Source of the DNA: Escherichia coli
GTDB taxonomy: Bacteria; Pseudomonadota; Gammaproteobacteria; Enterobacterales; Enterobacteriaceae
Strand: one strand, 5' to 3'
NCBI RefSeq assembly: GCF_002854065.1
Contig: NZ_CP024147.1
Length of the DNA: 64,000 nt
Shown: positions 6,976 through 54,516 of the stretch, in pieces
Layout: every line of letters begins with the position of its first letter
Numbering within the stretch: position 1 is the first letter of the stretch
Made by a program: the position numbers and the translations under genes
The notes under the pieces: generated by a model
Databases searched by the model: none
What the model saw: the letters and a program-made list of their open reading frames with translations, nothing else
What the model was told of the DNA's origin: nothing

Positions 6976-7119
6976 AGTAAAAAGCAGAGCGTACGGATGA
7001 CGGGCGCTACAGCGTTATGTAAATTTTTTAATGAATTTGCTGGTTGAAAAATCAACAAAAACAACATGCTGACAGACAAAACCCCGGAATGACCGGCATT
7101 ACCGGGGCTTAGGGAAGAT

Positions 7120-22791: not shown

Positions 22792-23295
22792 TTAGAGTTC
22801 GCGTAGCATCCGCACTTCACAATCGACATGGCCCGTGCAGCCAAGCGCATAGTCGATATGCTCAAAGCCCAAATGCTCATAAAGCGCAATGGCTTCCTTT
22901 AAAAAAGCGGTCGTTTCCAGATAGCAGCGTTTGAAGCCCATCTCTCGTGCTTGCTCCATCGCCATTAAGGCCAGTTTTTTCGCCAGCCCTTTACCGCGAA
23001 TAGCCGGAAGAAAATACATCTTTTGCAGTTCGCAAATGTCCGATTCACTACCTGCTAATGGCGCAATCCCACCGCCGCCGACCACTTCACCCTCGTACTC
23101 AACCACCCAATATGCATGACCAGGCTGACTATACACTTGATACAGCTCGTCAAGATTCGGATCGGCGACGGTGTAGCCTTTATCAGCGGTAAGACCGTAT
23201 TCGGCGGATACCTGACGAATGACGCGGGCGATAGCAGGATTATCCTGCAACGTCAGGCGACGCATTACAGGTGATTGCGGCGCAATGTTATTCAT
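22792..23295 (-). CDS. yjgM: GNAT-family N-acetyltransferase YjgM
   Basis: 167-aa ORF with GNAT acetyl-CoA binding motif (RGKGLAKKL). Confidence 0.8.
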
Positions 23296-24684: not shown

Positions 24685-24690
24685 GAGATA

Positions 24691-24724
24691 AAAAAGGCCG
24701 GAGCATGCTCCGGCCTTCGTTTTC
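24691..24724. terminator. Bidirectional intrinsic terminator between convergent yjgN and valS
   Basis: GGCCGGAGCATGCTCCGGCC perfect hairpin flanked by an A-run and a T-run. Confidence 0.8.
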
Positions 24725-24739
24725 ATCACTGTGTTTTGA

Positions 24740-34015: not shown

Positions 34016-34092
34016 GAGATATCCTCCAGTTTCCTGCCTGGAGTATAGGCAACGTCCGGCAAAGAGAATACGTGTAATGAAGAGAAAATAAC

Positions 34093-35091
34093 CTAAAGCG
34101 TGTTGCCGTGATAAATCTGATACCCGAGGTCAACAGTGTTGTGGTTGTGATCGTTATTTTTAATTTTGCTCAGCAACATTTGGGCGGCCATCCGACCAAT
34201 ATCAAAACGGGGAGTAATTACGCTGGCGAGGCTTGGGATCATTTGCCTGCCAATCTCCAGCCCATGAAAACCCGCAATGGAAATTTGTTCTGGCACGGCG
34301 AGGTTTCGCTCGCGGCACAGCAGAAGCGCACCCATCGCAATATCGTCATTGGTGCAAAATACACCGTCTAAATCCGGGTTTGCGCTAAGGGCATCACGCA
34401 TTAACTGCATTCCTAAATGAATGGATGAGATGGCGCGTGGATTCATGCGTAATGGGGAAAGATTATGCAGCATCATCGCATCGCAATACCCCTGATAACG
34501 CTGTTCATCGCGGGTGTCATCTTTGGAACCGAGATACAGAATTTTGTGCCTGACTCGCTTCTCCAGCATGGTACACACCATGTCAAAAGCGGCCTGCCGA
34601 TTATCAAAACCGACCTCCATATCCAGCCGTTCTCCCTGTACATCCATCAATTCCACGACCGGAATGGTGGCTGAACGCAGAAATTTCACCGTCCTGATGG
34701 TGTGATATTTTTCCGAAAGTATAATCCCGTCAATGTTATAAGAGAGCAGGTTAATCACCGACTCTTCTTCGGAATCGCGATCGTAATTGTAATTAGCAAT
34801 AAGGGTCTGATAATTATGCTCAGAGGTGACGGATTCTATTCCCGCGAGAATGTCAGCGAAGAGTTGATTTTGAAATGACGGAATCAAGATACCGAGGGTA
34901 TAACTTTGTGCATTCAACAACATGCCGGGAGCGCGATTAGGGATATAATTGATCTCTTCCATAATTTTGGCGATGCGCTCGCCTGTTTCCTTTGCCACCT
35001 TTTTCGGCGAGCGGATATAACGACTCACGGTCATTTTTGTTACGCCAGCCAGCGTAGCGATATCCTGTAAAGAAATTCTGTGATTGCGCAT
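34093..35091 (-). CDS. idnR: LacI-family regulator of L-idonate catabolism
   Basis: LacI-type HTH ([21 protein letters not shown]); start placed at [10 protein letters not shown]. Confidence 0.85.
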
Positions 35092-35157
35092 AACTTCTCC
35101 CAACGTCGGGGGAATCTTCAATCTTCCCCCGAAACTACATCACAATATTTTATTCTT

Positions 35158-36477
35158 TCAGTGCAATACGGCGTTAATGGCTAACACGCCCAGCAAACCC
35201 ATAATAGAAATAAGGGTTTCCATCACCGTCCAGGTACGCAACGTTTCACCAACCGTCAGATTAAAATACCCTTTAAATAGCCAGAAGCCAGGGTCGTTTA
35301 CGTGTGACGCGATCACGCTGCCCGCACCGGTTGCCAGTACCATTAAAGCGGGATCGGCATGGGTAACGTTGATAATCGGCAACACCACACCCGCGGTGGT
35401 AATGGCCGCGACGGTGGCAGAGCCCAGAGCGATACGCAACAGCGCCGCAACAGTCCAGCACATCAATAACGGCGAAAGCGTAGTTCCGGTCATTAAGTGT
35501 GAAATATAGTGCCCGACACCGCTATCTACTAATACCTGCTTAAACGCGCCGCCGCCAGCGATAATAAACACAATCATCGCGATAGCGCCTATAGAATCCC
35601 CAATGATATCCATGATTTGCTCGATGGTGCGTCCATTACGTCGGCCCAGTGTGAAAATCGCAATAACAATGGCAATAAACAGCGCAACGGCAGGGTTACC
35701 GACAAATTCAAAGAAGAGGCGCACGGTGTTAGTTTTCGGTAACGTAATTTCACAAACGGCGGCGATAGCCATCAGGATGACCGGGATCACGGCAGCGAAA
35801 ATACTGTTCCAGAAGGAGGGCATCTCCTCTTCGCTAAACAGATGAGGATTAAATAAGCCTTCCGGTGGTGCTTTCTCAAAGCGAGTTAGCAGTTTAGAAA
35901 ACAGCGGTCCTGCGACAATAACTGTCGGAATGGTAATGATAAATCCATACAGTAAAGTCGTTCCGAGATTAGCCTCAAAGATAGTCGCGATGGCAGTAGG
36001 CCCTGGATGTGGCGGCAGAAAACAGTGGGTTACAGAGAGCGCTGCTACCATTGGTACGCCAACATACAACAGGGGTAATCCTGATGATGCTACGATGGTA
36101 AATACCAACGGCAACAGCAGGACAAAACCCACTTCAAAAAACATGGCGAGGCCCACAACCAGACCAGTGATCACTAGCGCCCATTGCACGCGTTTTTTAC
36201 CAAAAGTAGCAATCAGCGTAGTGGCGATACGTTGTGCCGCACCCGTATCAGAAATCAGCTTGCCTAACATGGCCCCGAAACCGAGGATCATTGCCAGCCC
36301 ACCGAGCGTGCTGCCGATACCATTTTGTATAGAGTGCAGGACGGCCTGTGCATCCATCCCTTCGGCAAATCCGACGACGGCAGCTACCAGAACGAGGGCA
36401 ATAAAGCCGTTAACTTTAAAGCCGATCATCAGGATAAGAAGCAGCGCGACGCCTGCCGCAATAATGATTAATGGCAT
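35158..36477 (-). CDS. idnT: GntP-family L-idonate/5-ketogluconate transporter
   Basis: 439-aa polytopic GntP permease sequence. Confidence 0.88.
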   Translation of the reverse strand: MPLIIIAAGVALLLILMIGFKVNGFIALVLVAAVVGFAEGMDAQAVLHSIQNGIGSTLGGLAMILGFGAMLGKLISDTGAAQRIATTLIATFGKKRVQWALVITGLVVGLAMFFEVGFVLLLPLVFTIVASSGLPLLYVGVPMVAALSVTHCFLPPHPGPTAIATIFEANLGTTLLYGFIITIPTVIVAGPLFSKLLTRFEKAPPEGLFNPHLFSEEEMPSFWNSIFAAVIPVILMAIAAVCEITLPKTNTVRLFFEFVGNPAVALFIAIVIAIFTLGRRNGRTIEQIMDIIGDSIGAIAMIVFIIAGGGAFKQVLVDSGVGHYISHLMTGTTLSPLLMCWTVAALLRIALGSATVAAITTAGVVLPIINVTHADPALMVLATGAGSVIASHVNDPGFWLFKGYFNLTVGETLRTWTVMETLISIMGLLGVLAINAVLH

Positions 36478-36541
36478 AGTCTTTATCTCTTATTAGTGCC
36501 AGAAAAGCAGCGCTTTCGCGCTGCACGTAGGGTAGTAGGTG

Positions 36542-37306
36542 TTAAACAGCCACTAACATGCCGCCATCAACAAACAACAGGTGGCCGTTTACGAAATCAG
36601 AGGCTTTTGAAGAAAGGAACACCGCAGCACCAATCAGTTCCTGCGGATCTCCCCAGCGTGCGGCGGGGGTCCGTTTGCACAACCAGGCGGTGAAGGCTTC
36701 GTCCTCAACCAGTGCTTTAGTCATTTCTGTTTTGAAATAGCCCGGCGCAATACCGTTGACCTGAATATTGTGGCGCGCCAGCTCGACGCACATGCCGCGG
36801 GTGAGCATTTTTACCGCCCCTTTCGATGCGGCATAAGGGGTGATGGTGTCACGTCCCAGTTCGCTTTGCATCGAGCAAATATTAATAACTTTACCTGCCT
36901 TGCGTTCAACCATGTGACGAGTTACTGCTTGCGATACCAGGAACACGGCGGTCTGGTTTACTGCGATCACATCATTCCACTCTTGTTCAGGGAACTCAGT
37001 AAAAGGATGACGGCGCTGGATACCGGCGTTATTCACCAGCACATCAATGGGGCCGATGTCCTTTTCGATATGTTCAACGGCGGCATCAATTTCATGTTTA
37101 TGAGTAACATTAAAAGGTGCGGCAACGGCCTGAATACCCTCCTGGTGGAGTTTTTCTACAGCAAGTTCTGCGCGTTCGGCAGTAATATCATTAATAATTA
37201 TTTGTGCGCCATATTTACCCAGGCCGGTTGCCAGTAAAAAGCCAATGCCCTGTGCTGAACCGGTAATCAAGATATTTTTTCCTGCCAGTGAAAATAGATC
37301 GTTCAT
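36542..37306 (-). CDS. idnO: 5-keto-D-gluconate 5-reductase (SDR)
   Basis: 254-aa SDR with TGSAQGIG Rossmann motif. Confidence 0.88.
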   Translation of the reverse strand: MNDLFSLAGKNILITGSAQGIGFLLATGLGKYGAQIIINDITAERAELAVEKLHQEGIQAVAAPFNVTHKHEIDAAVEHIEKDIGPIDVLVNNAGIQRRHPFTEFPEQEWNDVIAVNQTAVFLVSQAVTRHMVERKAGKVINICSMQSELGRDTITPYAASKGAVKMLTRGMCVELARHNIQVNGIAPGYFKTEMTKALVEDEAFTAWLCKRTPAARWGDPQELIGAAVFLSSKASDFVNGHLLFVDGGMLVAV

Positions 37307-37329
37307 TGTATTATTCCTTTATTTATCTC

Positions 37330-38361
37330 TTAGAAAACAAGCTGGACTTTTGCTGCCTGGGTTTTATCACCGGCGAAACGTAGCGCCTCTTCCAGGTCAG
37401 TGAAGGGATATTCAGCACTCAGTAAAGGCAGTGGATTGATAACGCCATTCGCCAGCCATGACACTGCGGTATTAAATTCGCTGGTAAAACGGAAAGAGCC
37501 TTTGAGTGAAATCTCCTTACCAATCAATGTCATCATTGGGAATTCTGCCATCGCGCCTCCCATACCTACCTGCACCATTACGCCGCGTGCACGAGTGACC
37601 TCCAGACAGGTATTCACTGATGAAGGATGACCGGACACTTCAAAGCTGACATCGAAATAGCCTTTTTCCGCTTTCCAGTGATCCATGTCGTCGTTTTGTG
37701 GGTTTACGAGCACATCCGCCCCCATCTCTTTACCCAGCGAAAGGGAACGGGGACTCACATCGGCACAGACAATTTCCGCGGCCCCCAGTGTTTTCACAGC
37801 ACTGACAATCAGGCAGCCAATGGGCCCAACACCAGAAATAAATACTCGCTTGCCCTGTAACTCGCCGGCCTGATGTGCGGCATGAATCGCGACGGCTAAA
37901 GGTTCGGCAAAAGCCATAACCTTTTCGTCAGCTTTGGCCGGATAAGGGACACATTGCGACGTTTCGACCATTTTATAACGGGTAAAACCACCATCAACAT
38001 GAGGGAAATACATGGCACTGCCAAAAAAACGCATATCTGTACACTGATTCTCGTTATGTTCAATGCAGTATTTGCAGTGACCGCACGGTTTAGACGGATT
38101 AATGGCTACCGTTTGCCCTTCATGTAATTCTGATGAGTCGCTATGAATAACTTTACCGATAACTTCATGACCTAACACCATCGGTGCCTTTATCATGAAA
38201 TTACCTACTTTTCCTTCCTGATAATAATGTAAATCGGAACCGCAAATTCCACCTCGGGTTATTTGTACTAATGTTCCATTATTATTCCAATCTATCGTCT
38301 GCTCGGTAACGGCAACAGTTTTCTTGCCCGCAACAACGCAGGACTGTGTTTTCACTTGCAT
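37330..38361 (-). CDS. idnD: L-idonate 5-dehydrogenase (Zn-dependent MDR)
   Basis: 343-aa MDR with GHE and Zn-cysteine cluster (CGHCKYC). Confidence 0.88.
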   Translation of the reverse strand: MQVKTQSCVVAGKKTVAVTEQTIDWNNNGTLVQITRGGICGSDLHYYQEGKVGNFMIKAPMVLGHEVIGKVIHSDSSELHEGQTVAINPSKPCGHCKYCIEHNENQCTDMRFFGSAMYFPHVDGGFTRYKMVETSQCVPYPAKADEKVMAFAEPLAVAIHAAHQAGELQGKRVFISGVGPIGCLIVSAVKTLGAAEIVCADVSPRSLSLGKEMGADVLVNPQNDDMDHWKAEKGYFDVSFEVSGHPSSVNTCLEVTRARGVMVQVGMGGAMAEFPMMTLIGKEISLKGSFRFTSEFNTAVSWLANGVINPLPLLSAEYPFTDLEEALRFAGDKTQAAKVQLVF

Positions 38362-38577
38362 AAATTCCTCACTGGTCAGGTAGACACCTCGGAAGCATTT
38401 AAGCGGTTTTAATTGTTATTATTTGTGATGAAGATCACGTCAGAAAATTGTTACATTACTATGTTACGCATAACGTGATGTGCCTTGTAATTCTTATCAG
38501 CAGAAATAAAAAAACGTGAAATTATTATGCCACCAGGCGTAGTATCGCAGCAGGTAAGATGATTCAGGAGATTTTAA

Positions 38578-39141
38578 ATGGCGGGTGAAAGCTTTATTTT
38601 GATGGGCGTTTCAGGGAGTGGTAAAACATTAATTGGTAGCAAGGTTGCCGCGTTATTATCTGCTAAATTTATTGATGGTGACGATCTTCATCCAGCCAAA
38701 AATATAGATAAAATGTCGCAGGGTATTCCATTATCTGATGAAGATCGACTTCCCTGGCTGGAACGCTTAAATGATGCTTCATACAGTCTTTATAAAAAGA
38801 ATGAAACAGGATTTATTGTCTGTTCATCATTAAAAAAACAGTATCGTGATATTTTACGCAAGGGTAGCCCCCATGTTCATTTCCTCTGGTTAGATGGCGA
38901 CTATGAAACTATTCTCGCGCGAATGCAGCGTCGGGCTGGGCATTTTATGCCGGTAGCGTTACTAAAAAGTCAGTTTGAGGCACTGGAGCGTCCACAAGAA
39001 GATGAACAGGATATTGTGCGCATTGATATCAACCATGATATTGCCAATGTCACTGAACAATGTCGGCAGGCTGTGCTGGCGATACGACAAAACAGAATAT
39101 GTGCGAAAGAGGGCAGCGCCTCAGATCAGCGCTGCGAATGA
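38578..39141 (+). CDS. idnK: Gluconate kinase (thermosensitive isoform)
   Basis: 187-aa P-loop kinase (GVSGSGKT). Confidence 0.88.
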   Translation: MAGESFILMGVSGSGKTLIGSKVAALLSAKFIDGDDLHPAKNIDKMSQGIPLSDEDRLPWLERLNDASYSLYKKNETGFIVCSSLKKQYRDILRKGSPHVHFLWLDGDYETILARMQRRAGHFMPVALLKSQFEALERPQEDEQDIVRIDINHDIANVTEQCRQAVLAIRQNRICAKEGSASDQRCE

Positions 39142-39144
39142 TTT

Positions 39145-40164
39145 TCAAAAATCGGCTTTCAACACCACGCGGTAACGCGCCTTACCGTCGCGCACATGCT
39201 GGATGGCGTCGTTAATTTTCGACATCGGGAACAATTCGGTAGTCGGCGCAACCTTGCTGCGGGCGGCAAAACGCATCAGCTTACGCAACTCATAAGGCGT
39301 GCCAGTAGCAGAGCCAGAGACACTGCGATCGCCCGCAATTAACGTAAAGGCCGGAACAGACAGCGGCGTGAGAACCGCACCGACCGTATGGAAATTACCG
39401 CCATACGTCAGCGCCTCAAAATAAGGCTGCCAGTCGAGGCTGACGTTCACAGTATTGATAATGAGATCAAACTGCCCCGCCAGAGTTTTCAGTGCCTGCG
39501 GATCGCGGCTATTCACCACTTTATCGGCACCCATCGCCAGTACTTCCTGCTCTTTCGCCGGATTTGAACTAAAGGCTGTCACCTCGCATCCCATTGCGTG
39601 CAGAAGTTTTATAGCGATATGCCCCAGCCCGCCAATACCAATTACCCCAACGCGGCTGGTAGCAGTGATATGGTGCATCAATAGTGGTTTAAAGACCGTG
39701 ATACCGCCGCACAACAGCGGCCCGGCGGACTCGATATCAATATTTTCTGGCAGTGGAATCACCCATTGCCAGTCCGCACGCAACTTCTCGGCAAAGCCAC
39801 CGCGATTCATAATCGTCGGCACCGCACCTTGCTCGCAGTTGATCTGATTACCGCTAATACAGGCGTCGCAGTGACCACAGCTACGCGCCGTCCAGCCAAT
39901 CCCGACACGCTGACCGACCTGCAAACCTTTATCCTGCGCGGCGCTCCCGAGTGCCACCACGCGCCCAATCACCTCATGCCCGGCAACCAGCGGATACTGT
40001 GAAAATCCCCATTCGTTATCGATCATCGACAGATCGGAATGGCAGATCCCGCAGTAATCCACCTGCACTTCAATATCTTGTGGCTTCAGCTCACCGGGAT
40101 CGTACTCATAAACTTCCAGTTCGCCGCCCGCTTCTTTTGCGGCATAGCTTTTTATCATCGACAT
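39145..40164 (-). CDS. ahr: NADPH-dependent aldehyde reductase Ahr (YjgB), Zn-dependent MDR
   Basis: MDR motifs GHEVIG and CGHCDAC; start placed at [11 protein letters not shown]. Confidence 0.85.
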
Positions 40165-42229: not shown

Positions 42230-45200
42230 ATGGATGCTTTAAGGGCTACAACATCGACAAATTTCAGTTTTCTCGCTGAACATGACCCGCTGTTTCTACA
42301 AATCGCCACTGCTGCAGAAAACGCCTTCTCAGGCGATCCCAACACCACCTTGATTAAGTTGCGCCAACTAGGTGAAGCCTTAGCACAACATATTGCTGCG
42401 CTGGTCGGGATCACGTTTGATGAACCGCCCACTCAGGCTGATTTACTCTACCGCCTCAATCGCGAGCTAAAATTTGAACCCACGGTACTCGAGCTATTTC
42501 ATCTATTGCGGATAGAGGGCAACAAGGCCACTCACCAGTTCAAAACCAAGCACAAAGAGGCGCTAGATGGCTTAAAAGTGGCGCGAGCGCTAGCTATCTG
42601 GTTCCACCAATCTTTCGGCAAGCAGGGCGCGGCCTTTAAACCCGGCGCTTTTATTGCTCCTCCAGACCCGAGCAATCAGCTTAGGCAACTCCAAACGGAA
42701 ATCGATCGCCTCAAAAGTGAGCTCACTACCGCCAACATACAGCTAGATTCCAGCCAACAGCTGCAAAATTTGCTGGTGCAGGAAAAGAGTGAATATGAAG
42801 CGCTGGCGTTAGCCATGGATGATGAAACTAAGGTGTTAGCATCGCAGGCGAAAGAGCAGGAAATTGCACTCGAACAGCTTCGACAGCAATACGAAGAAAA
42901 ATTAAAAATCCTGCAAGCGCAACTGACCGAAAAAGATGAAAAGCAGGCCCGAACACAACGGCGAGAGTTTGCCCAGAAGAGCCGCCGTGCCAGCCAACAT
43001 ATCGCGTTAAATGAAGAACTCACCCGTATATTGATTGACCAAAACTTAAATGATGCGGGCTGGCTTGCTGACAGTCAGGAACTGACCTGGGCTAACGGAA
43101 CTCGCCCTGAAAAGGGGATAAACAAAGCCATTGCCGAATGGCCTACGGAGTATCAGGGTAAAAAAGGTCGCGCTGATTACGTTCTATTTTGCGGCTTAAC
43201 TCCGCTGGCCACGGTCGAAGCCAAAAAAGAAAACACCGATGTTGCGGGAAAAATTCCGCAGGCAGAACGCTACAGCAAAGGCTTCAAAATCACGTCCCCC
43301 ATGATTGGCGCATGGGAGCGGGAAGGCCGAACCATTGCATGGGCGGATGAGACTGACGGGCATTATATTATCCCGTTTGTATACTCCTGCAACGGTCGCC
43401 CCTACGTGCCACAGTTGGCTGAGTCATCAGGAACTTGGTTCCGGGACGTGCGCGAACCGTCCAACATCCGCCGTGCGCTGCAAAAGTTTCATACCCCGCA
43501 AGGCTTGCTGGATAAACTCGAACGCAGCAAAGACAGCGCCGAACAGAAGCTAAAGCAAGAAGGCTTCGCTTACCTCCGGTTACGCGATTATCAGCAAAAG
43601 GCCATTCTCGCCGTTGAAAGCACATTGGCGCAAAACATCCGCAATGCCCTTCTGGCGATGGCGACCGGCACCGGGAAAACACGCACCATTGTTGGTCTAA
43701 TGTACCGTTTTCTGAAAACTGAACGCTTCAAGCGCATCCTCTTTCTGGTTGACCGTACGGCTTTGGGCGAGCAAGCCACGGACACCTTCAAAGAAGCGCC
43801 GTTGGAGCAAAACCAGACGCTGTCTCAGATTTACAATATCGCTGAGCTCGGCGATATGGCTACACAGGCAGAAACCCGAGTACAGGTCGCGACGGTACAG
43901 GCCATGGTTAGCCGCATTTTTTCCTCGGACACACCACCGCCGGTGGATGAATTTGACTGCATCATCGTTGATGAAGCCCACCGAGGCTACACCTTAGATC
44001 AGGAAATGACTGAAGGGGAACTCTCGACCCGCGACGCCAGCCAATATCTCTCCAGCTACCGTCGGGTGCTCGATTATTTCGACGCGGTAAAAATCGGCCT
44101 TACCGCCACTCCGGCGAAACATACCAGCGATATCTTCGGCAAACCGATTTACATCTACTCCTACCGTGAAGCCGTGGCGGATGATTGGCTTATCGATCAT
44201 GAACCTCCAATCCGTTATGAAACGCTGCTGACGCAAAATGGCATCCACTTTGACAAAGGGAGCCAGGTGCATGCCATTAATATCCACACCGGAGAGGTTG
44301 AGATTGATCAGCTAGAAGACGAAGTGGATTTCAACGTTGATGCATTTAACCGTGGCGTCATCAGTGAAAACTTTAATCGGGTTATTTGCCAACAGCTCGT
44401 GAAAGAGCTCGATCCCTTTGGCGAAGAGAAAACGCTGGTTTTCTGCGTTACAGACAAACATGCCGACATGGTCAAACGCTTGCTGGATGAAGCGTTCTCT
44501 GCTGAATATGAAAACTATAATCAAGCGGCCGTCGAGAAAATCACCGGTGAAAGTGACAAAGTCAAACAGTTGATCAAACAGTATAAAAATGAACGCTATC
44601 CGAATATTGCAATCACCGTTGATTTGCTTAGCACCGGCATTGACGTGCCGAAGATTTGTAATCTGGTTTTCATGCGTCGGGTGAAGTCACGTATTTTATT
44701 TGAACAGATGATAGGCCGCGCAACACGCCGCTGTGATGACATTGGCAAAACGGTCTTCCGTATTTACGATCCAGTAGATATTTATGAGGCTCTCAGTGAC
44801 GTTAACACCATGAAACCGCTGGTCAAAGACCCCAATATCACACTTGAACAATTGGTCGGCGAGCTAACCGATACTGAACAGCTCGAAAAAGCGCTCAACA
44901 GCCCCGGTGAACATACAGGTGAAACTCAGGCTGATGTGGTGCTCAGCCAGTTAAGCCAAAAGGTGATGCGCATCCTACGTAAGGCGGAGAAACGGGCAGA
45001 AAATCGCCCAGTGGTGAAACAAAAATTGGCTGACCTCCATCAACTGTGGGGCGTTGAGCCAAAACAGCTGCATCAACATCTGCATCACTTAGGGCCGCGT
45101 CAGGCGGCAGCCTTCATCCAACAACAGCAAGGGCTAATCTGCCAGCTCAACGAGATAGCTACATTACTCGGAAGTGAATACCGGCCGATTATTTCTGAGC

Positions 45201-45754
45201 ATCATGACCAACTACAGGAACGTAACCAGAGCTACGGTAGCCATCAGCGGCCAGAAGATTACCTGGAAAGCTTTGCGGATTTTATTCAGCAGCAGCTTAA
45301 CCAATCCACTGCGCTGGCCGTGGTTGTCAACAAACCCCGCGACCTCACTCGTGAACAGCTTAAAGAGATCCGCTTATTATTAGACGGTGCGGGCTATTCC
45401 GAAGCTAATCTACAAACCGCCGTGCGTAATCAAACCAATCAGGATATCGCCGCCAGCATTGTCGGCCACATTCGCCGTGCTGCACTAGGGGAGCCTCTTG
45501 TGCCTTTTGCACAGCGCGTATCACAGGCAATGATCAACATTTATAACAGCCGCGCATGGACAACCCAGCAACGAAAATGGCTGGATCGTCTGGCAAAACA
45601 GCTGGTTCATGAAGTGATCATTGATCACCAATTTATTAACAATAGTTTTGCTGATGATGGCGGCGTAAAACAGCTCAATAAGATATTGGTAGACCAACTG
45701 GACAGCGTGCTGGATGAACTTAACGGTGCGATATGGCCACAACAAAGCGCCTGA
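42230..45754 (+). CDS. hsdR: Type I restriction enzyme R subunit (nuclease/helicase)
   Basis: 1174-aa ORF; PD-(D/E)xK-type motif (RADYVLF...VEAKK), SF2 helicase motif I (AMATGTGKT) and motif II (IIVDEAHRG); N-terminal coiled-coil segment. Confidence 0.9.
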   Translation: MDALRATTSTNFSFLAEHDPLFLQIATAAENAFSGDPNTTLIKLRQLGEALAQHIAALVGITFDEPPTQADLLYRLNRELKFEPTVLELFHLLRIEGNKATHQFKTKHKEALDGLKVARALAIWFHQSFGKQGAAFKPGAFIAPPDPSNQLRQLQTEIDRLKSELTTANIQLDSSQQLQNLLVQEKSEYEALALAMDDETKVLASQAKEQEIALEQLRQQYEEKLKILQAQLTEKDEKQARTQRREFAQKSRRASQHIALNEELTRILIDQNLNDAGWLADSQELTWANGTRPEKGINKAIAEWPTEYQGKKGRADYVLFCGLTPLATVEAKKENTDVAGKIPQAERYSKGFKITSPMIGAWEREGRTIAWADETDGHYIIPFVYSCNGRPYVPQLAESSGTWFRDVREPSNIRRALQKFHTPQGLLDKLERSKDSAEQKLKQEGFAYLRLRDYQQKAILAVESTLAQNIRNALLAMATGTGKTRTIVGLMYRFLKTERFKRILFLVDRTALGEQATDTFKEAPLEQNQTLSQIYNIAELGDMATQAETRVQVATVQAMVSRIFSSDTPPPVDEFDCIIVDEAHRGYTLDQEMTEGELSTRDASQYLSSYRRVLDYFDAVKIGLTATPAKHTSDIFGKPIYIYSYREAVADDWLIDHEPPIRYETLLTQNGIHFDKGSQVHAINIHTGEVEIDQLEDEVDFNVDAFNRGVISENFNRVICQQLVKELDPFGEEKTLVFCVTDKHADMVKRLLDEAFSAEYENYNQAAVEKITGESDKVKQLIKQYKNERYPNIAITVDLLSTGIDVPKICNLVFMRRVKSRILFEQMIGRATRRCDDIGKTVFRIYDPVDIYEALSDVNTMKPLVKDPNITLEQLVGELTDTEQLEKALNSPGEHTGETQADVVLSQLSQKVMRILRKAEKRAENRPVVKQKLADLHQLWGVEPKQLHQHLHHLGPRQAAAFIQQQQGLICQLNEIATLLGSEYRPIISEHHDQLQERNQSYGSHQRPEDYLESFADFIQQQLNQSTALAVVVNKPRDLTREQLKEIRLLLDGAGYSEANLQTAVRNQTNQDIAASIVGHIRRAALGEPLVPFAQRVSQAMINIYNSRAWTTQQRKWLDRLAKQLVHEVIIDHQFINNSFADDGGVKQLNKILVDQLDSVLDELNGAIWPQQSA

Positions 45755-45833: not shown

Positions 45834-47402
45834 ATGAGTAATAATAACGATATCGTACAAAAACTGTGGAACCTGTGTGATGTACTGCGTGATGACGGCA
45901 TCAACTACAGCGATTACGTCACCGAACTAGTGCTACTACTGTTTATCAAAATGGTGCATGAAAATACCGAAGCAGAATTATTAGATCAGCACACTTTACC
46001 GCAGGGCTGCCGCTGGAGCGATCTCAACAGTTTATCGGGCCTCAACTTGCTTAACCATTACAAACAAATGCTGTTGAAGCTCTCCAGCGGCAAAGACGCT
46101 GAAGGTAATTCGGTTCATGCTGACCCGCTGATTAGCGCCATTTATGACGATGCGCAGACCCGCCTGCGTGAGCCTCGTCATCTCGAACAGATGATCCGCA
46201 CCCTCGACCAAATTGACTGGTTTAGTGCTAAAAAAGACGGTCTCGGTGATCTTTATGAAGGTCTGCTGGAGAAAAACGCCGGAGAAACAAAATCTGGCGC
46301 AGGTCAATATTTTACGCCGCGGGCCTTAATTAACAGCATGGTACGCTGCATTAAGCCACAGGCTGGAGAAGTGATCCAAGATCCCGCTGCGGGCACCGCA
46401 GGGTTTTTGATTGCCGCCGATCAATACATCAAGCAACAAACTGACAACCTCTACGACCTTACTGCCAAAGCGAGAACCTTTCAAAAAAATAAAGCCTTTA
46501 TTGGTGTGGAACTGGTTCCGTCTACGCGCCGCCTGGCACTGATGAACTGCCTGCTACACGGCATCGAAGGGGATGACGAAGGCGTCGTGCATCAGGGCAA
46601 CGCGTTGGGCATGGTGGGTGCTAGCTTGCCCAAGGCCGATATCATTCTTGCTAACCCGCCGTTCGGTACGGCGAAAGGCGGTGAAGCCAGCATTACTCGT
46701 GATGACTTAACCTACCCAACTAGTAACAAACAGCTAGCGTTTTTACAGCATATCTACCGTAACTTAAAACCGGGTGGCCGTGCAGCTGTGGTGCTACCCG
46801 ACAACGTCCTGTTTGAAGCGGGTGTTGGCACCGATGTACGCCGCGACCTTATGAACAAATGTAACCTGCACACCATTTTACGTTTACCCACCGGGATTTT
46901 TTACGCCCAAGGGGTGAAAACCAACGTTTTGTTCTTCACCAAAGGCAGCGCCAACAACAAACATCAGGATGAAAATTGTACCGAAAACGTCTGGATCTAT
47001 GATCTGCGTAGTAACATGCCAAGCTTTGGCAAACGCACCCCGTTTGGTGAGCAACATTTAAAACCCTTTGAAGCGGTTTACGGCGACGATGCCAACGGTC
47101 AAAGCCCACGCAGTGAAGGGGAATGGAGTTTTAACTCCGACAAACTTGACGTGCCCGATAACGCCGAAAATCAGCACGTTGACAACCGCATGGCGACCAG
47201 CCGTTGGCGCACATTCAGCCGTGAATGGATCCGCGATGTTAAAGGTGATTCATTAGATATTGCATGGCTGAAAGATAACAACAGCGTTGATGTGACTAAC
47301 CTGCCTGAACCTAGTGTATTAGCGATTGAAGCAAAAGAAGAATTAACCACTGCTTTAGCAGAACTGGATGCTTTATTGACTTTATTAGGAGCAACTCGCT
47401 GA
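45834..47402 (+). CDS. hsdM: Type I restriction-modification N6-adenine DNA methyltransferase subunit
   Basis: N-terminal HsdM_N-like sequence (DIVQKLWNLCDVLRDDG), motif I DPAAGTAGFL, catalytic NPPF; start at the ATG with AGGA RBS. Confidence 0.9.
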   Translation: MSNNNDIVQKLWNLCDVLRDDGINYSDYVTELVLLLFIKMVHENTEAELLDQHTLPQGCRWSDLNSLSGLNLLNHYKQMLLKLSSGKDAEGNSVHADPLISAIYDDAQTRLREPRHLEQMIRTLDQIDWFSAKKDGLGDLYEGLLEKNAGETKSGAGQYFTPRALINSMVRCIKPQAGEVIQDPAAGTAGFLIAADQYIKQQTDNLYDLTAKARTFQKNKAFIGVELVPSTRRLALMNCLLHGIEGDDEGVVHQGNALGMVGASLPKADIILANPPFGTAKGGEASITRDDLTYPTSNKQLAFLQHIYRNLKPGGRAAVVLPDNVLFEAGVGTDVRRDLMNKCNLHTILRLPTGIFYAQGVKTNVLFFTKGSANNKHQDENCTENVWIYDLRSNMPSFGKRTPFGEQHLKPFEAVYGDDANGQSPRSEGEWSFNSDKLDVPDNAENQHVDNRMATSRWRTFSREWIRDVKGDSLDIAWLKDNNSVDVTNLPEPSVLAIEAKEELTTALAELDALLTLLGATR

Positions 47403-48778
47403 TGAGTAAGATTATTCTACCTGAAGGGTGGTCCAATTGTACTCTTGCAGATATTGCTGAAGTTAACCCTAAAAAAATAGAGGCTGAACCTGACATAATT
47501 GCAGGCTTTGTTCCTATGTCTCATGCCCCAACAAACTATTACGGGAAATTAGAGTTTGAAGAAAAGACTTGGGGTGAAATTGGTAAATCTTACACTAACT
47601 TTAAAAATGATGATGTGATTTTTGCAAAAGTAACGCCTTGTTTTGAAAATGGTAAAGCAGCAATTGTAAAAGATATGCCAAATAATATCGGTGCAGGCAG
47701 CTCTGAATTTTATGTTCTACGCGCTCGTAATCAAGAGATACCAGCCAGTTATTTACTTGGGATTATTAAGACCAGAAAATTTATGCAGGAAGGTGCAGAA
47801 AATATGACAGGTGCTGTTGGTCTGCGCCGTGTTCCAAGGGCTTTCGTTGAAAGCTTTCCTTTGATACTTCCCCCTCTTGCAGAACATAAAATCATCGCCG
47901 ATAAACTCGATATTCTGTTAGCACAGGTCGAAAGCGCCAAAGCACGCCTTGAGCAAATACCACAAATCCTGAAGCGTTTTCGTCAAGCGGTGTTGGCATC
48001 TGCGGTGAGTGGAAAATTAATACCAAAGGATCAAAAGTCCAATGTACGATTTGATGTCTCAGTTGGTTCACTTTGTATAACTTCGTTTGATGGCCCTTTT
48101 GGGTCAAAATTAAAAACGGCTGATTATACAAATGCGGGTGTTCGTGTCGCTCGACTAGAAAATATTGGTCATTTAACATTTAATGATGAAAAAGAAACGT
48201 ATATCAGCGATACAAAATTTAATAGCCTAAAAGGAAATAAGCTCGAAAAGGATGATGTGTTATTCTCATCATTTGTAGATGAAGATGTTCGTGTATGTCT
48301 TTTTCCACATAACGATAAAATTTTTATAAACAAGGCAGATTGTTTTTGTTTAAGGATCAATCAAGAAATAGCATCACCAAAATATGTAGCTTTAACATTA
48401 GCAAGCAGAACTTCGTATGAACAAATTAAAGCACAGGTTCAAGGTGTAACACGACCTCGTATTAATTTAAAGACGTTAAGGTCTTTGTCGTTTACGTTTC
48501 CTTCTCTACAAGAACAAAACGAAATTGTTCGCCGCGTAGAACAACTCTTCGCCTATGCTGATGGCATCGAAAAGCAGGTACACAACGCCCTTGAGTGCGT
48601 CAACAACCTCACACAGTCGATTCTGGCTAAAGCATTTCGTGGGGAACTCACGGCGCAATGGCGTGCAGAAAATCCCGATTTAATTAGTGGTGAAAATAGC
48701 GCACAAGCATTACTGGTGAAAATTCAACAGCAGCGCAAAAACATAAAAAATATCAAACGCAACAAGGGTAATAATTGA
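47402..48778 (+). CDS. hsdS: Type I restriction-modification specificity subunit
   Basis: 458-aa ORF, start overlaps the hsdM stop (TGATG); two target-recognition-domain halves separated by conserved helical spacers. Confidence 0.85.
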   Translation: MSKIILPEGWSNCTLADIAEVNPKKIEAEPDIIAGFVPMSHAPTNYYGKLEFEEKTWGEIGKSYTNFKNDDVIFAKVTPCFENGKAAIVKDMPNNIGAGSSEFYVLRARNQEIPASYLLGIIKTRKFMQEGAENMTGAVGLRRVPRAFVESFPLILPPLAEHKIIADKLDILLAQVESAKARLEQIPQILKRFRQAVLASAVSGKLIPKDQKSNVRFDVSVGSLCITSFDGPFGSKLKTADYTNAGVRVARLENIGHLTFNDEKETYISDTKFNSLKGNKLEKDDVLFSSFVDEDVRVCLFPHNDKIFINKADCFCLRINQEIASPKYVALTLASRTSYEQIKAQVQGVTRPRINLKTLRSLSFTFPSLQEQNEIVRRVEQLFAYADGIEKQVHNALECVNNLTQSILAKAFRGELTAQWRAENPDLISGENSAQALLVKIQQQRKNIKNIKRNKGNN

Positions 48779-50481
48779 TGCGACTGATTTCTTTAGATTT
48801 GAGAGGCAGCTACAAAGGCTTGAAAGATCAATTCTTTGACTTCAGTTATGCCCAAGATAATATAATTGCATTGATTGGCCTTAATGGTTCTGGTAAATCT
48901 CAATTGCTTGAGTTAATCGGAGAAACTTTTGCTTATCTAGAGCGATGGCAACGTGCAGAGTTCAAAAATAAAACATCGTTAGGTTTTAGCGTCGCGGTAC
49001 ACTATCAATGGGATCTTAGAAATGATAGTGCTGTTATATCTTACCCAGACGAGCTCATGAATCATGGTGAGAGCATTGAGCTAAAGGTAACTATTGAGCT
49101 TGACGGCGATGTGTTTTTAAATGTTCGTGGTACTTATGAGTGGCATGTAATACAGCTTGGTGAGCGCCATTTCCCCATCCCTCTCGTGGTTGGTTATGCT
49201 TCGGGGCTAAACGAAAATTTACAGCGAAGTTTTATGAAAAATGCTGTGCAATATTTTGAAGTCCGTCGAATTAGTAGCCAGCGTCTAAAAATGCTATCAC
49301 GAGAAATTAATGATGAACAGTTGGCTGAAATCAATAAGAAGTATCTTAAAAAATACCCACACATATTTGATCCTTTATCAGAAGGTGATTTTTTTCCAAA
49401 TTATCACCTGAATTTGAGAGAAGTGAATCCTGCCCCTAGCAATTTTAACTATCTTGATTACGATAATATTGGGCTCTTAATTTTATCGCTATCGATTCTT
49501 CCGGCTGGGACAGTATTTCAACTATTAGATGAAATAACATATAAACATCCTGTCAAAGCTGTACTTCATTACGACTTTCGTTCTGGCATCATAGAAGATG
49601 ATGCCATTCGTGATGTGAAAATGTTGATCCGTATAGCAGGCTCCGATCAAGTAAGGCCAACAGGAGGCCGAACTACAGATAACCAGTATGAACTTTATGA
49701 GTTAGAATATCTGTCTGGAGAAATCACTCTCGAATTAAGTGATGAGGCTGTTTTAAACCGACTTCGTGAAGATAACTACTTTGATTCTTTCGCATTATTT
49801 AAAAGACTTAATAATATTCAACAGCTTGGCATAAAGAACTGGGATCGTACATCTCGTTTGAAATTGATGAAAGATGATTTTATAGGTACGGTAAAAAAAC
49901 CGCTTCAGTCAAGGTTACCTTTATCTGTTGTTGAGTTATTAATGGCTAATGAACAGGGCGATACCGTGAAGTTTGATGATTTATCTGACGGTGAAGCTCA
50001 ATTGATTCAGGTTGTTGCCGCAACAAGGATATTCAGTCAGGTTCAAGCGCTATTTCTTTTTGATGAGCCAGAAACACACCTTAATCCGTCTTGGCGTACC
50101 TATTTTCATCAGCGTTTAACTGAAGCATTTACACCTGGAAATGAGAGGAAAGGTCAATCGCAATTCTTTCTATCTACTCACTCACCATTCATGATTTCCT
50201 CGCTCAAACGCGAGAATGTATTTTTCTTCGAGCGTAGTGATATGGGTTGTATCAGTATGGAACCGGTGTCCAGCCAGACTTATGGCACATCATTTGATGT
50301 CTTGGTTAAGAACCACTACGGTCTGCGTTCCCTTATTTCACAGACAGTGGTGAAGGATGTTAAAAATCGATTACCAGAAGATAATAATCCTGAAGCAGTT
50401 ATAGCTGCGCGACTCTGGATTGAGGAAAATCTGGGAGAATCAATGGAAAAGGCTTATCTGCTAAGGAAACTAGATAGCTAA
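48778..50481 (+). CDS. ABC/SMC-like P-loop ATPase (AAA_15/AAA_21-like), candidate defence ATPase (Septu PtuA-like)
   Basis: Walker A GLNGSGKS near the N-terminus; signature-like LSDGEAQL, Walker B LFLFDEPETHLNP and H-loop STHSP near the C-terminus; start overlaps the hsdS stop. Confidence 0.7.
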   Translation: MRLISLDLRGSYKGLKDQFFDFSYAQDNIIALIGLNGSGKSQLLELIGETFAYLERWQRAEFKNKTSLGFSVAVHYQWDLRNDSAVISYPDELMNHGESIELKVTIELDGDVFLNVRGTYEWHVIQLGERHFPIPLVVGYASGLNENLQRSFMKNAVQYFEVRRISSQRLKMLSREINDEQLAEINKKYLKKYPHIFDPLSEGDFFPNYHLNLREVNPAPSNFNYLDYDNIGLLILSLSILPAGTVFQLLDEITYKHPVKAVLHYDFRSGIIEDDAIRDVKMLIRIAGSDQVRPTGGRTTDNQYELYELEYLSGEITLELSDEAVLNRLREDNYFDSFALFKRLNNIQQLGIKNWDRTSRLKLMKDDFIGTVKKPLQSRLPLSVVELLMANEQGDTVKFDDLSDGEAQLIQVVAATRIFSQVQALFLFDEPETHLNPSWRTYFHQRLTEAFTPGNERKGQSQFFLSTHSPFMISSLKRENVFFFERSDMGCISMEPVSSQTYGTSFDVLVKNHYGLRSLISQTVVKDVKNRLPEDNNPEAVIAARLWIEENLGESMEKAYLLRKLDS

Positions 50482-51647
50482 TGTTATTTTCACTTAATCC
50501 ACAGACGCCTCAATGTTCGGTATTTGCATTTCTTAATGCTGAATTTCTTCATTTTTTGCAAGCTACTATTAATGCTGATGTATTCTCAGAAAACTTATTC
50601 CGCACTTTTCCTGAGATGATTGAAGATACAGAAGTACTTGTCCCTAGTGTATGTTGGAGTAATGAGCCCACAAGAGAGAAATTTCTTGGGTTATGGGAAG
50701 CGCGGCCTACGACCGTTGCGCAGCGACGGGAGTTGTCAGACCAAATAAGTCAGGCTCAGGATATTAATGTATTTTTCAACAATACCCAAGCTGTATTGCC
50801 GCAATTAGTACCAGCCTCTTTATTCGAAGCATGTAAGGCGTTAACAACTCATTTGTTTACACGTACCAAAGATCTAGCTCAAGCAAAGTCACAATCCAAT
50901 AGTTCTATTGAAAAACATTATCAGAATTTCGTCAGAGAAAATAATAATAGCCATCTATGTCCTATTTGTGGCACTGCACTTCTCTCTCAAAATCGAGAAA
51001 GCGTAGCAGAGGAAGAACAATGGCGATCAGATTATGACCACATTCTTTGCAAAGATAAATATCCAGTTTACAGTGTCCATCCAGGAAACTTCATTCCGAC
51101 TTGCCATATTTGTAATAGTAAAGCTAAAGGGGCAAGGGACTTACTGAATACTGTTGGTCTCCAGAGACGATTAGCATTTTATCCACTTCCCCCATCACAA
51201 GAGTCATGTGAGCAATTTGTTGTGGTATCGCTTCACCTCAGTGACCGTAGAGATTTAATTGTGAATAGTTGGGAAACACCGTTGGAGTCAGCATCCATTT
51301 TATTCCCCAGAGCTCCAGCTGACATAGTAGATAAAATAGGTGTATGGAAAGAAGTTTATAAAGTACCAGAAAGAGTTGAACAGCATCTTAAGGTCAACTT
51401 TTGCGAGCGTATAGCCGCTGATCTACGACCAGTAAGCTTTGATGATTTCTGTGAGCAATTACATAGATATTCGAGACAAATGCCAGCAGACTATAGAAAA
51501 TCGGAATGGAGGTTTTGGTGGCAGAAAGTCTATGAATTCTTATCAGATCAAAATAGAGACTATTTACACGATGTGTGGATATTAATTGCCTGGAAATTAA
51601 GGTTATCAAATGATGCTGATATGGCTGATACGTTTAATCAAATTTAA
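50481..51647 (+). CDS. HNH-endonuclease-domain protein, partner of the upstream ATPase (Septu PtuB-like)
   Basis: Central motif CPICG...DYDHILCKDKYP...NFIPTCHICNSKAKG (CxxC...DH...N...CxxCN); start overlaps the ATPase stop (TAATG). Confidence 0.65.
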   Translation: MLFSLNPQTPQCSVFAFLNAEFLHFLQATINADVFSENLFRTFPEMIEDTEVLVPSVCWSNEPTREKFLGLWEARPTTVAQRRELSDQISQAQDINVFFNNTQAVLPQLVPASLFEACKALTTHLFTRTKDLAQAKSQSNSSIEKHYQNFVRENNNSHLCPICGTALLSQNRESVAEEEQWRSDYDHILCKDKYPVYSVHPGNFIPTCHICNSKAKGARDLLNTVGLQRRLAFYPLPPSQESCEQFVVVSLHLSDRRDLIVNSWETPLESASILFPRAPADIVDKIGVWKEVYKVPERVEQHLKVNFCERIAADLRPVSFDDFCEQLHRYSRQMPADYRKSEWRFWWQKVYEFLSDQNRDYLHDVWILIAWKLRLSNDADMADTFNQI

Positions 51648-51661
51648 ATTTTACTTCAACA

Positions 51662-51691
51662 GGGTGAGAGTATTGTTACTCTCCCTTTTTA
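51662..51691. terminator. Hairpin plus T-run between convergent HNH gene and nuclease-motif gene
   Basis: GGGTGAGAGTAttgtTACTCTCCC followed by TTTTT; overlaps the last codons of the minus-strand gene. Confidence 0.5.
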
Positions 51692-52848
51692 AAATACATT
51701 GTAGAAGGTGCGCTTATTACTACGCAACCATCAATGCCTTTTATCTTCAATACCCCTTCCTTGAATTTAACATGTTCTTGTGTTGCTCGAGTGCAGTCCC
51801 ACAGGAAGCTGATGATATACGAATCCTTATATTTTTCGTCGACACGATAAAGTGACGCATCTTCTGCAATTTCTCCTATTAGTGCAGGAAACGATTTTTT
51901 TGTATCTTTTCGGTATTTTACTTCAATAATTGTGTGCAGTGATGGCAGATAAAGGTCTATGCGGGGGTTTTTTTGTCCGACAGGCTGAAGATTCACCTCA
52001 TCTGCAATATCGTTGAATATTGGCGCAAGTAGGATATAAAGCAGATTCTGAACATGATATTCATTTTCAACTTGCCACTTTACGGGCTCTGCGCCTCTGG
52101 TTCGACCTGAGTCCTCCCATGTCCATCGTTTTAACCCTGCAGGGATATGTTCCAGAAATCCTAGCAGGTCATCCAGTGTCCATCCAGACGGTGGAGCAAT
52201 GGCAATTTCCTGATTAATTTGATTAAAAACGTAAAGCATTACACACAAGAGAGTAACTGAAGGATTTTCTGTAGCTTGTGCTTGAAATTCGCTCATGAAA
52301 CGTCCGACAAGAGAAAGTCGGTTCTGATGACTATTGATCTTCAATAACTTTCGATAATGAAGGAAGAGTGGTATGCAGGCACTACTAAAGGAGGCTGATT
52401 CGCTGTTACCGACATATGCCGCGATATCTTTCTCGAAGATACTTAGATGGTTGCTTTCAATTTGCTGAGCCAGAAACCCTGAAATCCACTTTTCGAACTC
52501 GTGATTTATGCTCTCATCTTGCATCTGTGCCGTTAGCCATTTCACTGCCATTACACCGAACATATCCGATACCCAAGGTCTCGGTGTTGAATCAATCTTG
52601 GGAGCTTGTCCGAGCAGGCGAGAGACATCCTGGACCGAGACAGTTTCATCTAGAATACCTAAACCTGAAATTGCACAGCGTTGGTATAAAGATAGGTCCG
52701 CAAAGCTAAAATTCGTAATGCAGCTTTTATCTCCTTCCAGGAGACTAAAAAAGCAGGACTTAAATGGATCAATGTGAGCGGATTCGATCACCTTACTGTG
52801 AAAATAGTCGCGTAGCTGATAAACGTTTTCTTTCTCTATAGGAACCAT
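51676..52848 (-). CDS. Predicted PD-(D/E)xK-motif nuclease, candidate effector partner of the upstream Argonaute
   Basis: 390-aa ORF; C-terminal motif ...RIDLYLPSLHTIIEVKY (D-x(n)-E-x-K) preceded by a helix with conserved Glu; start overlaps the pAgo stop by 13 nt. Confidence 0.55.
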   Translation of the reverse strand: MVPIEKENVYQLRDYFHSKVIESAHIDPFKSCFFSLLEGDKSCITNFSFADLSLYQRCAISGLGILDETVSVQDVSRLLGQAPKIDSTPRPWVSDMFGVMAVKWLTAQMQDESINHEFEKWISGFLAQQIESNHLSIFEKDIAAYVGNSESASFSSACIPLFLHYRKLLKINSHQNRLSLVGRFMSEFQAQATENPSVTLLCVMLYVFNQINQEIAIAPPSGWTLDDLLGFLEHIPAGLKRWTWEDSGRTRGAEPVKWQVENEYHVQNLLYILLAPIFNDIADEVNLQPVGQKNPRIDLYLPSLHTIIEVKYRKDTKKSFPALIGEIAEDASLYRVDEKYKDSYIISFLWDCTRATQEHVKFKEGVLKIKGIDGCVVISAPSTMYFKKGE

Positions 52849-53175
52849 TGTGAATGCCCTATTTTTCCAATCATGACTGAGTCACTCCAGCCCGGAAGCT
52901 GATTCAACCATCCTAAATTATGGGCGATAAGATCGGAATAAGTGATGGTAACTGGCATGGGATTGGGGAAGTAACTACGCCAGGAGTGTGATGCGAAACT
53001 GTAGAGCTGAGCACTCAAATACTTAATATCTTTGAAGGTCGAGTCTTTATGAACGTTGACGATCACACCACGTGGATGACCGTCCGTTTCTTGTCGTAAT
53101 TCACGTTGGCCGATCAGGTAAACAAGCATTTCGTTTTTAGAAAGCTTAAACGTATTTCCGCGATGTGTCGCCAGG

Positions 53176-53180
53176 CGTCC
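53176..53180. repeat. IS2 target-site duplication, left copy (CGTCC)
   Basis: Identical 5 bp directly flanking both IS2 ends. Confidence 0.85.
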
Positions 53181-53271
53181 TAGACTGGCCCCCTGAATCT
53201 CCAGACAACCAATATCACTTAAATAAGTGATAGTCTTAATACTAGTTTTTAGACTAGTCATTGGAGAACAG

Positions 53272-53637
53272 ATGATTGATGTCTTAGGGCCGGAGAAACG
53301 CAGACGGCGTACCACACAGGAAAAGATCGCAATTGTTCAGCAGAGCTTTGAACCGGGGATGACGGTCTCCCTCGTTGCCCGGCAACATGGTGTAGCAGCC
53401 AGCCAGTTATTTCTCTGGCGTAAGCAATACCAGGAAGGAAGTCTTACTGCTGTCGCCGCCGGAGAACAGGTTGTTCCTGCCTCTGAACTTGCTGCCGCCA
53501 TGAAGCAGATTAAAGAACTCCAGCGCCTGCTCGGCAAGAAAACGATGGAAAATGAACTCCTCAAAGAAGCCGTTGAATATGGACGGGCAAAAAAGTGGAT
53601 AGCGCACGCGCCCTTATTGCCCGGGGATGGGGAGTAA
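53272..53637 (+). CDS. insC: IS2 OrfA (InsC, HTH protein)
   Basis: 121-aa sequence [26 protein letters not shown]... recognised as IS2 InsC. Confidence 0.9.
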
Positions 53638-54500
53638 GCTTAGTCAGCCGTTGTCTCCGGGTGTCGCGTGCGCAGTTGCACGTCATTCTCAGACGAACCG
53701 ATGACTGGATGGATGGCCGCCGCAGTCGTCACACTGATGATACGGATGTGCTTCTCCGTATACACCATGTTATCGGAGAGCTGCCCACGTATGGTTATCG
53801 TCGGGTATGGGCGCTGCTTCGCAGACAGGCAGAACTTGATGGTATGCCTGCGATCAATGCCAAACGTGTTTACCGGATCATGCGCCAGAATGCGCTGTTG
53901 CTTGAGCGAAAACCTGCTGTACCGCCATCGAAACGGGCACATACAGGCAGAGTGGCCGTGAAAGAAAGCAATCAGCGATGGTGCTCTGACGGGTTCGAGT
54001 TCTGCTGTGATAACGGAGAGAGACTGCGTGTCACGTTCGCGCTGGACTGCTGTGATCGTGAGGCACTGCACTGGGCGGTCACTACCGGCGGCTTCAACAG
54101 TGAAACAGTACAGGACGTCATGCTGGGAGCGGTGGAACGCCGCTTCGGCAACGATCTTCCGTCGTCTCCAGTGGAGTGGCTGACGGATAATGGTTCATGC
54201 TACCGGGCTAATGAAACACGCCAGTTCGCCCGGATGTTGGGACTTGAACCGAAGAACACGGCGGTGCGGAGTCCGGAGAGTAACGGAATAGCAGAGAGCT
54301 TCGTGAAAACGATAAAGCGTGACTACATCAGTATCATGCCCAAACCAGACGGGTTAACGGCAGCAAAGAACCTTGCAGAGGCGTTCGAGCATTATAACGA
54401 ATGGCATCCGCATAGTGCGCTGGGTTATCGCTCGCCACGGGAATATCTGCGGCAGCGGGCTTGTAATGGGTTAAGTGATAACAGATGTCTGGAAATATAG
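53595..54500 (+). CDS. insD: IS2 OrfB (InsD, DDE transposase; expressed as an OrfAB fusion by -1 frameshift)
   Basis: 301-aa ORF overlapping insC in the -1 frame; DDE integrase-core-like sequence. Confidence 0.9.
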
Positions 54501-54511
54501 GGGCAAATCCA

Positions 54512-54516
54512 CGTCC
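54512..54516. repeat. IS2 target-site duplication, right copy (CGTCC)
   Basis: Identical 5 bp directly flanking both IS2 ends. Confidence 0.85.

Follow-up and report, generated by a model that had tools for sequence, protein, structure and literature searches.

A putative one-way intrinsic terminator between convergent HNH and pAgo-nuclease operons of Escherichia coli

Two convergent defence operons almost touch in the 64,000-nucleotide stretch of E. coli DNA analysed here (contig NZ_CP024147.1, hereafter the window), and a short hairpin followed by five uridines is located at their junction. We consider it probable that this hairpin and its U-tract constitute a canonical Rho-independent terminator of the plus-strand hsdR/hsdM-hsdS-ATPase-HNH operon, with a predicted strength on this strand that is borderline to moderate. 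The initial annotation had suggested that the element may serve both operons as a bidirectional terminator insulating one from the other. A role on the plus strand is plausible, while canonical features do not support one on the minus strand. As a structure the hairpin looks routine, with nothing new in kind, rather than like a special two-way insulator.

Organization of the junction and of the flanking operons

The features of the junction and its surroundings are listed in Table 1. Profile searches agreed with the gene labels given initially, namely an HNH gene closing the restriction-modification (R-M)/ATPase operon on the plus strand and the nuclease gene of a pAgo operon on the minus strand. 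Neighboring genes in the series hsdM, hsdS, ATPase and HNH overlap by 1 nt, stop to start. The hairpin thus comes after the final gene of a single operon, and it is the first terminator-like site after this translationally coupled run of genes. The stop codons of the two convergent genes lie at 51645-51647 (plus strand) and 51676-51678 (minus strand), leaving a gap of 28 bp. The hairpin starts 13 nt past the HNH stop codon, shortly after the last stop of the transcription unit as expected for a terminator. ORF coordinates also bear out the earlier statement that the repeat sits in this gap and overlaps the last codons of the minus-strand gene: the nuclease stop codon falls inside the loop and 3' arm, and the 3' arm together with the T-run covers this stop and the last four codons (K387 K388 G389 E390). 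Read on the minus strand, the U5 tract provides the codons for K387-K388.

The C-terminal tail of the nuclease encoded here (51679-51690, minus-strand codons 387-390) is variable. It reads KKGE in the window, KKKE in EcbAgaN and, from translation of the junction, KKRE in K. pneumoniae; a KKxE-type tail is absent from the 386-aa homologues, which end ...MNF. Rather than conserved protein, the tail thus appears to be junction sequence translated by read-through.

Upstream in the minus-strand operon the pAgo gene is split by IS2, which is inserted in the opposite orientation to the gene. In E. coli VTB96935v a collinear island with 99.7-99.98% identity carries an intact pAgo of 743 codons. Judged from its sequence, the strain of the window probably has an inactive BPAN system, and because the pAgo operon is broken by IS2, little minus-strand transcription may need insulating. 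The island adjoins tRNA-Leu, with an integrase alongside. A segment of ~5 kb lying between the homologues of yjgR and ahr (34054-39145), which may be the idn operon to judge by the K-12 gene order, is missing from VTB96935v.

Table 1. Features of the convergent junction and the neighboring genes (window coordinates).
Feature	Position	Strand	Basis or remarks
hsdR (type I R-M)	42230-45754	+	domain/profile searches
hsdM (type I R-M)	ORF from 45798, annotated start 45834, to 47402	+	
hsdS (type I R-M)	47402-48778	+	
PtuA-like ATPase, AAA_21/AAA_15	48778-50481	+	1-nt overlaps of start with hsdS stop and of stop with HNH start
HNH protein, 388 aa, PtuB/PDC-M62B-like	50481-51647	+	last gene of plus-strand operon
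Hairpin, candidate terminator	51661-51687	+	RNA fold; consensus terminator scan match 51666-51683
U5 tract, then AAAAU	51686-51690	+	nT 3.78; T-run in 10/10 aligned junctions
bAgaN-type PD-(D/E)XK nuclease, 390 aa, DpnII-MboI domain	51676-52848	-	97% identical to EcbAgaN
Long-B pAgo, C-terminal fragment	52836-53180	-	pAgo_II profile positions 608-724
IS2, 1331 bp, inside pAgo	53181-54511	+	rve/HTH_21; 5-bp target duplication CGTCC at 53176-53180 and 54512-54516
Long-B (class II) pAgo, N-terminal part	54512-56403	-	pAgo_II profile positions 2-612

Folding of the junction hairpin

The sequence of positions 51662-51691 is GGGTGAGAGTATTGTTACTCTCCCTTTTTA, and the imperfect inverted repeat followed by TTTTT that had been noticed there is present in the sequence and in its predicted fold. 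On the plus-strand RNA the lower stem pairs A51661-G51664 with C51684-U51687 (2 G-C, 1 G.U and 1 A-U), U51665 forms a 1-nt bulge, and the upper stem pairs GAGAGUA (51666-51672) with UACUCUC (51677-51683), closed by the tetraloop UUGU at 51673-51676. The stem comprises 11 bp in total, 5 G-C, 1 G.U and 5 A-U, and thereby combines a stable stem, a short loop and basal G-C pairs in the manner of a terminator.

The calculation of folding energies, which had been suggested as a check, gave a minimum free energy of -13.7 kcal/mol for the plus-strand RNA in a 41-nt context, compared to a mean of -5.9 kcal/mol for shuffled sequences (z -3.66), and only 1 of 200 shuffles folded as stably. The minus-strand RNA also folds, at -11.9 kcal/mol with z -2.98. 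A second copy of the hairpin was not found within the window at up to 3 mismatches, and an Rfam scan returned no match at E<=1. We therefore discarded the idea of a repeat or REP element or of a known RNA family.

Strand asymmetry of the terminator features

We compared both strands using a d score of the d'Aubenton-Carafa 1990 type with modern energy parameters; the values serve for comparison within the window only. The plus-strand tail UUUUUAAAAU constitutes a U-tract with nT 3.78, within the range of 3.4-4.8 that other gene 3'-end sites of the window show. With d -2.5 the plus strand scores borderline, between two comparable same-strand gene 3'-end sites on the minus strand at 7081 (-0.2) and 22760 (-5.4). 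The plus-strand sequence upstream of the hairpin is UUCAACA. On the minus strand a U-tract is absent: the tail CUGUUGAAG (also given as CUGUUGAAGU) contains 3 U in 8 positions, nT is 1.13 and d is -54, so that the U-tract expected on both strands of a bidirectional intrinsic terminator is found on one only.

Three symmetrical bidirectional terminators in the window served as internal controls (24695/24720, 22760/22787 and 15007/15034). All of them score on both strands, whereas the junction hairpin was scored on the plus strand only in the same scan. The control regions (24670-24725, 22735-22795 and 14980-15040) are each composed of an A-tract, a G+C-rich stem and a T-tract.

A further asymmetry concerns translation. 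A hairpin free of ribosomes is not available on both transcripts, the stop codon of the minus-strand gene being located within the stem. In a published study, repression exceeded 90% when a terminator lay within a few bp of a stop codon, and tR2 was partly to strongly repressed by ribosomes at spacings including 13 nt (PMC4824070). From this principle strong repression on the minus strand is predicted whenever the nuclease is translated, because its stop lies inside the stem and the terminating ribosome would cover the 3' arm; on the plus strand the spacing of 13 nt between stop and hairpin predicts partial repression.

We regard a true bidirectional terminator, as initially proposed, as unlikely. 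Its favorable points are that the hairpin is the sole stable structure between the convergent operons, that the minus-strand RNA still folds, that an A5 run is found upstream of the hairpin on this strand, and that both scans revealed no other convincing minus-strand terminator in the HNH antisense region. In addition, for bidirectional terminators of the collision type a stem-loop in a convergent overlap has been reported to suffice, canonical intrinsic features being unneeded (bioRxiv 10.1101/2022.10.23.513370). These points are opposed by the missing minus-strand U-tract, the stop codon in the stem, the detection on one strand where the controls were detected on both, and the loss of minus-strand pairing in Klebsiella described below; the IS2 insertion in the upstream pAgo, moreover, probably reduces minus-strand traffic. 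A function in both directions would consequently be conceivable, at the same low probability, through non-canonical routes only.

Frequency of comparable sites in the window

The junction hairpin was matched by a consensus terminator scan. Terminator-like patterns were not enriched in the 16-kb region scanned, 11 being found where 16.4 were expected from shuffled sequences. Since there was no enrichment at the level of the pattern, we used a scan based on energy and position, which collected all hairpins ending at a run of T4 or longer on both strands of the whole window (349 sites).

By stability the junction hairpin ranks 21st among these 349 sites. Among the 21 sites of equal or higher stability, at least 7 are found no further than 80 nt past a stop codon on the same strand; such space makes up 3.7% of positions. 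Same-strand 3' ends in the window therefore carry at least 9 times as many hairpin and T-run sites of this stability as their share of positions would give. At the background density found elsewhere, a 90-nt stretch following any given stop would contain about 0.01 such sites, and for this reason the position of the hairpin argues for a function.

Energy alone is no proof, because the coding region of hsdM contains a hairpin with a T5 run (46387-46410, scored at 46404 on the plus strand, CTGCGGGCACCGCAGGGTTTTT; about -11 to -13 kcal/mol) that surpasses the junction hairpin on the d measure. This internal site may be a chance site or an internal terminator masked by translation.

The comparable site in hsdM and the lack of pattern enrichment would both fit a repeat that has arisen by chance and is without function, an AT-rich leftover between juxtaposed mobile defence modules whose transcripts end by Rho, by collisions or elsewhere. 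The minus-strand RNA downstream is richer in C than in G (40 C and 26 G over 200 nt), a composition consistent with Rho action. We judge such a leftover to be improbable, though a real possibility, given the low expectation for a T5 site this stable so close behind a given stop and the direction of the substitutions discussed in the next section.

Comparison of orthologous junctions

The junction between the HNH gene and the convergent nuclease-pAgo operon was found in eight Enterobacterales lineages, E. coli and seven further ones (K. pneumoniae, K. aerogenes, Serratia fonticola, Enterobacter hormaechei, Phytobacter ursingii, Dryocola and one metagenome lineage). HNH identity across the seven ranges from 96% to 77%. 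A stable stem is formed only in E. coli (-12.8 kcal/mol), K. pneumoniae (-10.2 kcal/mol) and K. aerogenes (-8.8 kcal/mol). The junctions of Serratia, Phytobacter, Dryocola and Enterobacter contain weak hairpins of -0.8 to -4.7 kcal/mol with the operon intact; the junction L035, which resembles L036, was judged weak by eye only, and its computed row is left out. A run of T5-T8 is retained at junctions with weak hairpins. Conservation of the T-run is ambiguous, because it also encodes the Lys-Lys of the nuclease.

Covariation was not detected in the alignment of ten junctions, in which 69.7% of cells are paired in comparison to 70.6% when the structure is slid by +2. As the structure performs no better than such slid controls, we dropped conservation beyond the close clade as an argument. 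The restriction of the stable stem to one shallow subclade, most orthologous junctions being without it, and the missing covariation would again agree with a chance origin. Against this, comparison with the outgroup junctions revealed several one-sided changes and one two-sided change (A-U to G-C, alignment columns 47/56), all of which raise pairing in E. coli and Klebsiella.

Within the close clade only two changes at paired positions were observed in Klebsiella, A51672G and C51684T. Both result in G.U in the plus-strand RNA and in an A.C mismatch in the minus-strand RNA. In K. aerogenes G51664T additionally loses one pair of the lower stem. For E. coli and the two Klebsiella junctions the plus-strand fold amounts to -16.9/-14.9/-12.5 in comparison to -15.8/-11.0/-8.5 for the minus-strand fold, which decays faster. 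This substitution pattern, in a small sample, points to the plus strand.

We also considered loci in which one of the two operons has other neighbors. The hairpin is absent from pAgo-nuclease loci adjoining different genes, that is the EcBPAN/CAP29-type loci (L038-L041) and L011, and we could thus rule out that it travels with the pAgo-nuclease operon. In two loci, L007 (7174-7250) and L008 (7162-7230), close bAgaN homologues are followed by 45-70 nt left over from the 3' end of the HNH gene, with the stem decayed. Judging from this relic, the R-M/ATPase/HNH operon was once adjacent in both and was later deleted or replaced. HNH operons without pAgo (L023 and L033) diverge right after the HNH stop. 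No common terminator was found past the HNH stop in 11 genome loci ranging from Phytobacter to a Burkholderiales MAG; the distant hsdRMS-ATPase-HNH operons among those lacking it include Vibrio, Marinobacter and Shewanella. This comparison rules out the hairpin as a family-wide feature of the HNH operon. A stable hairpin was seen only alongside the HNH operon of the E. coli/Klebsiella type, and we regard it, on comparative grounds, as a young, clade-specific feature of the junction and not as an ancient conserved structure.

The same comparison bears on two further explanations. The hairpin could be a 3'-end stabilizer or processing barrier of the pAgo-nuclease mRNA, in which case 3'-5' exonucleases would trim minus-strand read-through transcripts back to it and the stop codon would be kept, or it could be a recombination or junction scar between the modules. 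Its location exactly at the nuclease stop would suit either, as would the ~40-nt segment 51648-51690, which is common only to loci with a present or past joined configuration; homology on the HNH side stops at the HNH stop (L023, L033) and on the pAgo side at the T-run (L011, L038). Other pAgo-nuclease operons including the characterized EcBPAN locus do without the hairpin, however, a repeat family, a second copy or features of a recombinase site were not found, and the substitutions favor the plus-strand RNA. We consider both explanations very improbable.

Proposed function of the junction hairpin

We infer termination, its efficiency and the position of the 3' ends for the plus-strand terminator, which we favor, as follows. 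RNA polymerase leaving the HNH gene would pause within the U-run (about 51688-51693), the bulged stem of 11 bp would fold, and the RNA would come off some 15-18 nt into the nuclease ORF, counted from its 3' end. The outcome would be less antisense transcription across the pAgo-nuclease operon. Efficiency is predicted to be moderate, because the U-run is short and the hairpin is located 13 nt past the stop, where a trailing ribosome may partly repress it. On the minus strand the hairpin might at most act as a weak pause or as a barrier to 3' exonucleases. It would have been built in the E. coli/Klebsiella subclade on an older AT-rich junction sequence that already carried the T-run.

A more speculative idea, to which we assign little probability, is that the convergence of the operons in at least eight Enterobacterales lineages is itself functional, and that the hairpin might tune mutual interference or a 3'-overlapping antisense RNA, for example as a collision-type stop.

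The plus-strand terminator would mark the likely 3' boundary of the defence operon and present the two operons as separate transcription units, which helps in annotating and cloning the native loci. The importance of the hairpin itself is small. Its surroundings are more useful, namely an EcBPAN orthologue probably inactivated by IS2 and a type I R-M operon with a permanently attached ATPase-HNH pair, of which the HNH protein is the fastest-diverging component other than hsdS. With 75-96% identity it is the most diverged gene of the island apart from hsdS, in comparison to identities of >=92% for hsdM, pAgo and the C-terminal part of hsdR (the portion present in the loci).

Comparison with known systems

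The junction shares with intrinsic terminators of E. coli such as lambda tR2 a stem-loop closed by a tetraloop, basal G-C pairs, a U-run following at once and a site past the last stop of the operon, and its stability of -11 to -14 kcal/mol is within their usual range. It differs in its short U-run (U5 then A4), in a stem with only 5 of 11 pairs being G-C and a 1-nt bulge, in its distance of 13 nt from the stop codon, at which ribosome repression is possible (PMC4824070), and in overlapping the 3' end of a convergent ORF.

With bidirectional terminators, either symmetrical ones with A-tract, hairpin and U-tract or those of the collision type (Ju et al. 2019; Wang et al. 2022), it has in common that one stem-loop is shared between nearly touching convergent 3' ends. 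Unlike the symmetrical ones, it has no minus-strand U-tract, contains the minus-strand stop inside the stem and scores on one strand. To the collision type the geometry of the junction fits, as far as can be read from sequence alone.

The minus-strand operon is orthologous to EcBPAN, an experimentally characterized long-B pAgo-nuclease system (Song et al. 2023, PMC10620215). Its nuclease shares 97% identity with EcbAgaN (WP_250844864), and pAgo is about 100% identical in CAP29-type loci. In both systems pAgo precedes the nuclease gene and overlaps it by 13 nt. In contrast to the window, where pAgo is split by IS2, the CAP29-type loci (L038-L041) adjoin a different type I R-M/UvrD island and are without the hairpin.

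The last two genes of the plus-strand operon match the PtuA, PtuB and PDC-M62B models and thus resemble Septu (PtuA ATPase and PtuB HNH) and the PADLOC candidates PDC-M62 and PDC-M01. In the alignment of homologues the HNH protein shows the invariant columns CxxC...H...CHxCN. It differs from Septu and PDC-M62 in that its matches to the PtuB/PDC-M62B models are partial (residues about 140-225, E about 1e-12) and a Pfam match is lacking. A second difference is that in all loci examined the ATPase-HNH pair is built into a type I R-M operon: the five-gene unit hsdR-hsdM-hsdS-ATPase-HNH was present in all loci found via an HNH homologue (L012-L037), in Gammaproteobacteria and one Burkholderiales MAG, down to an HNH identity of 31%.
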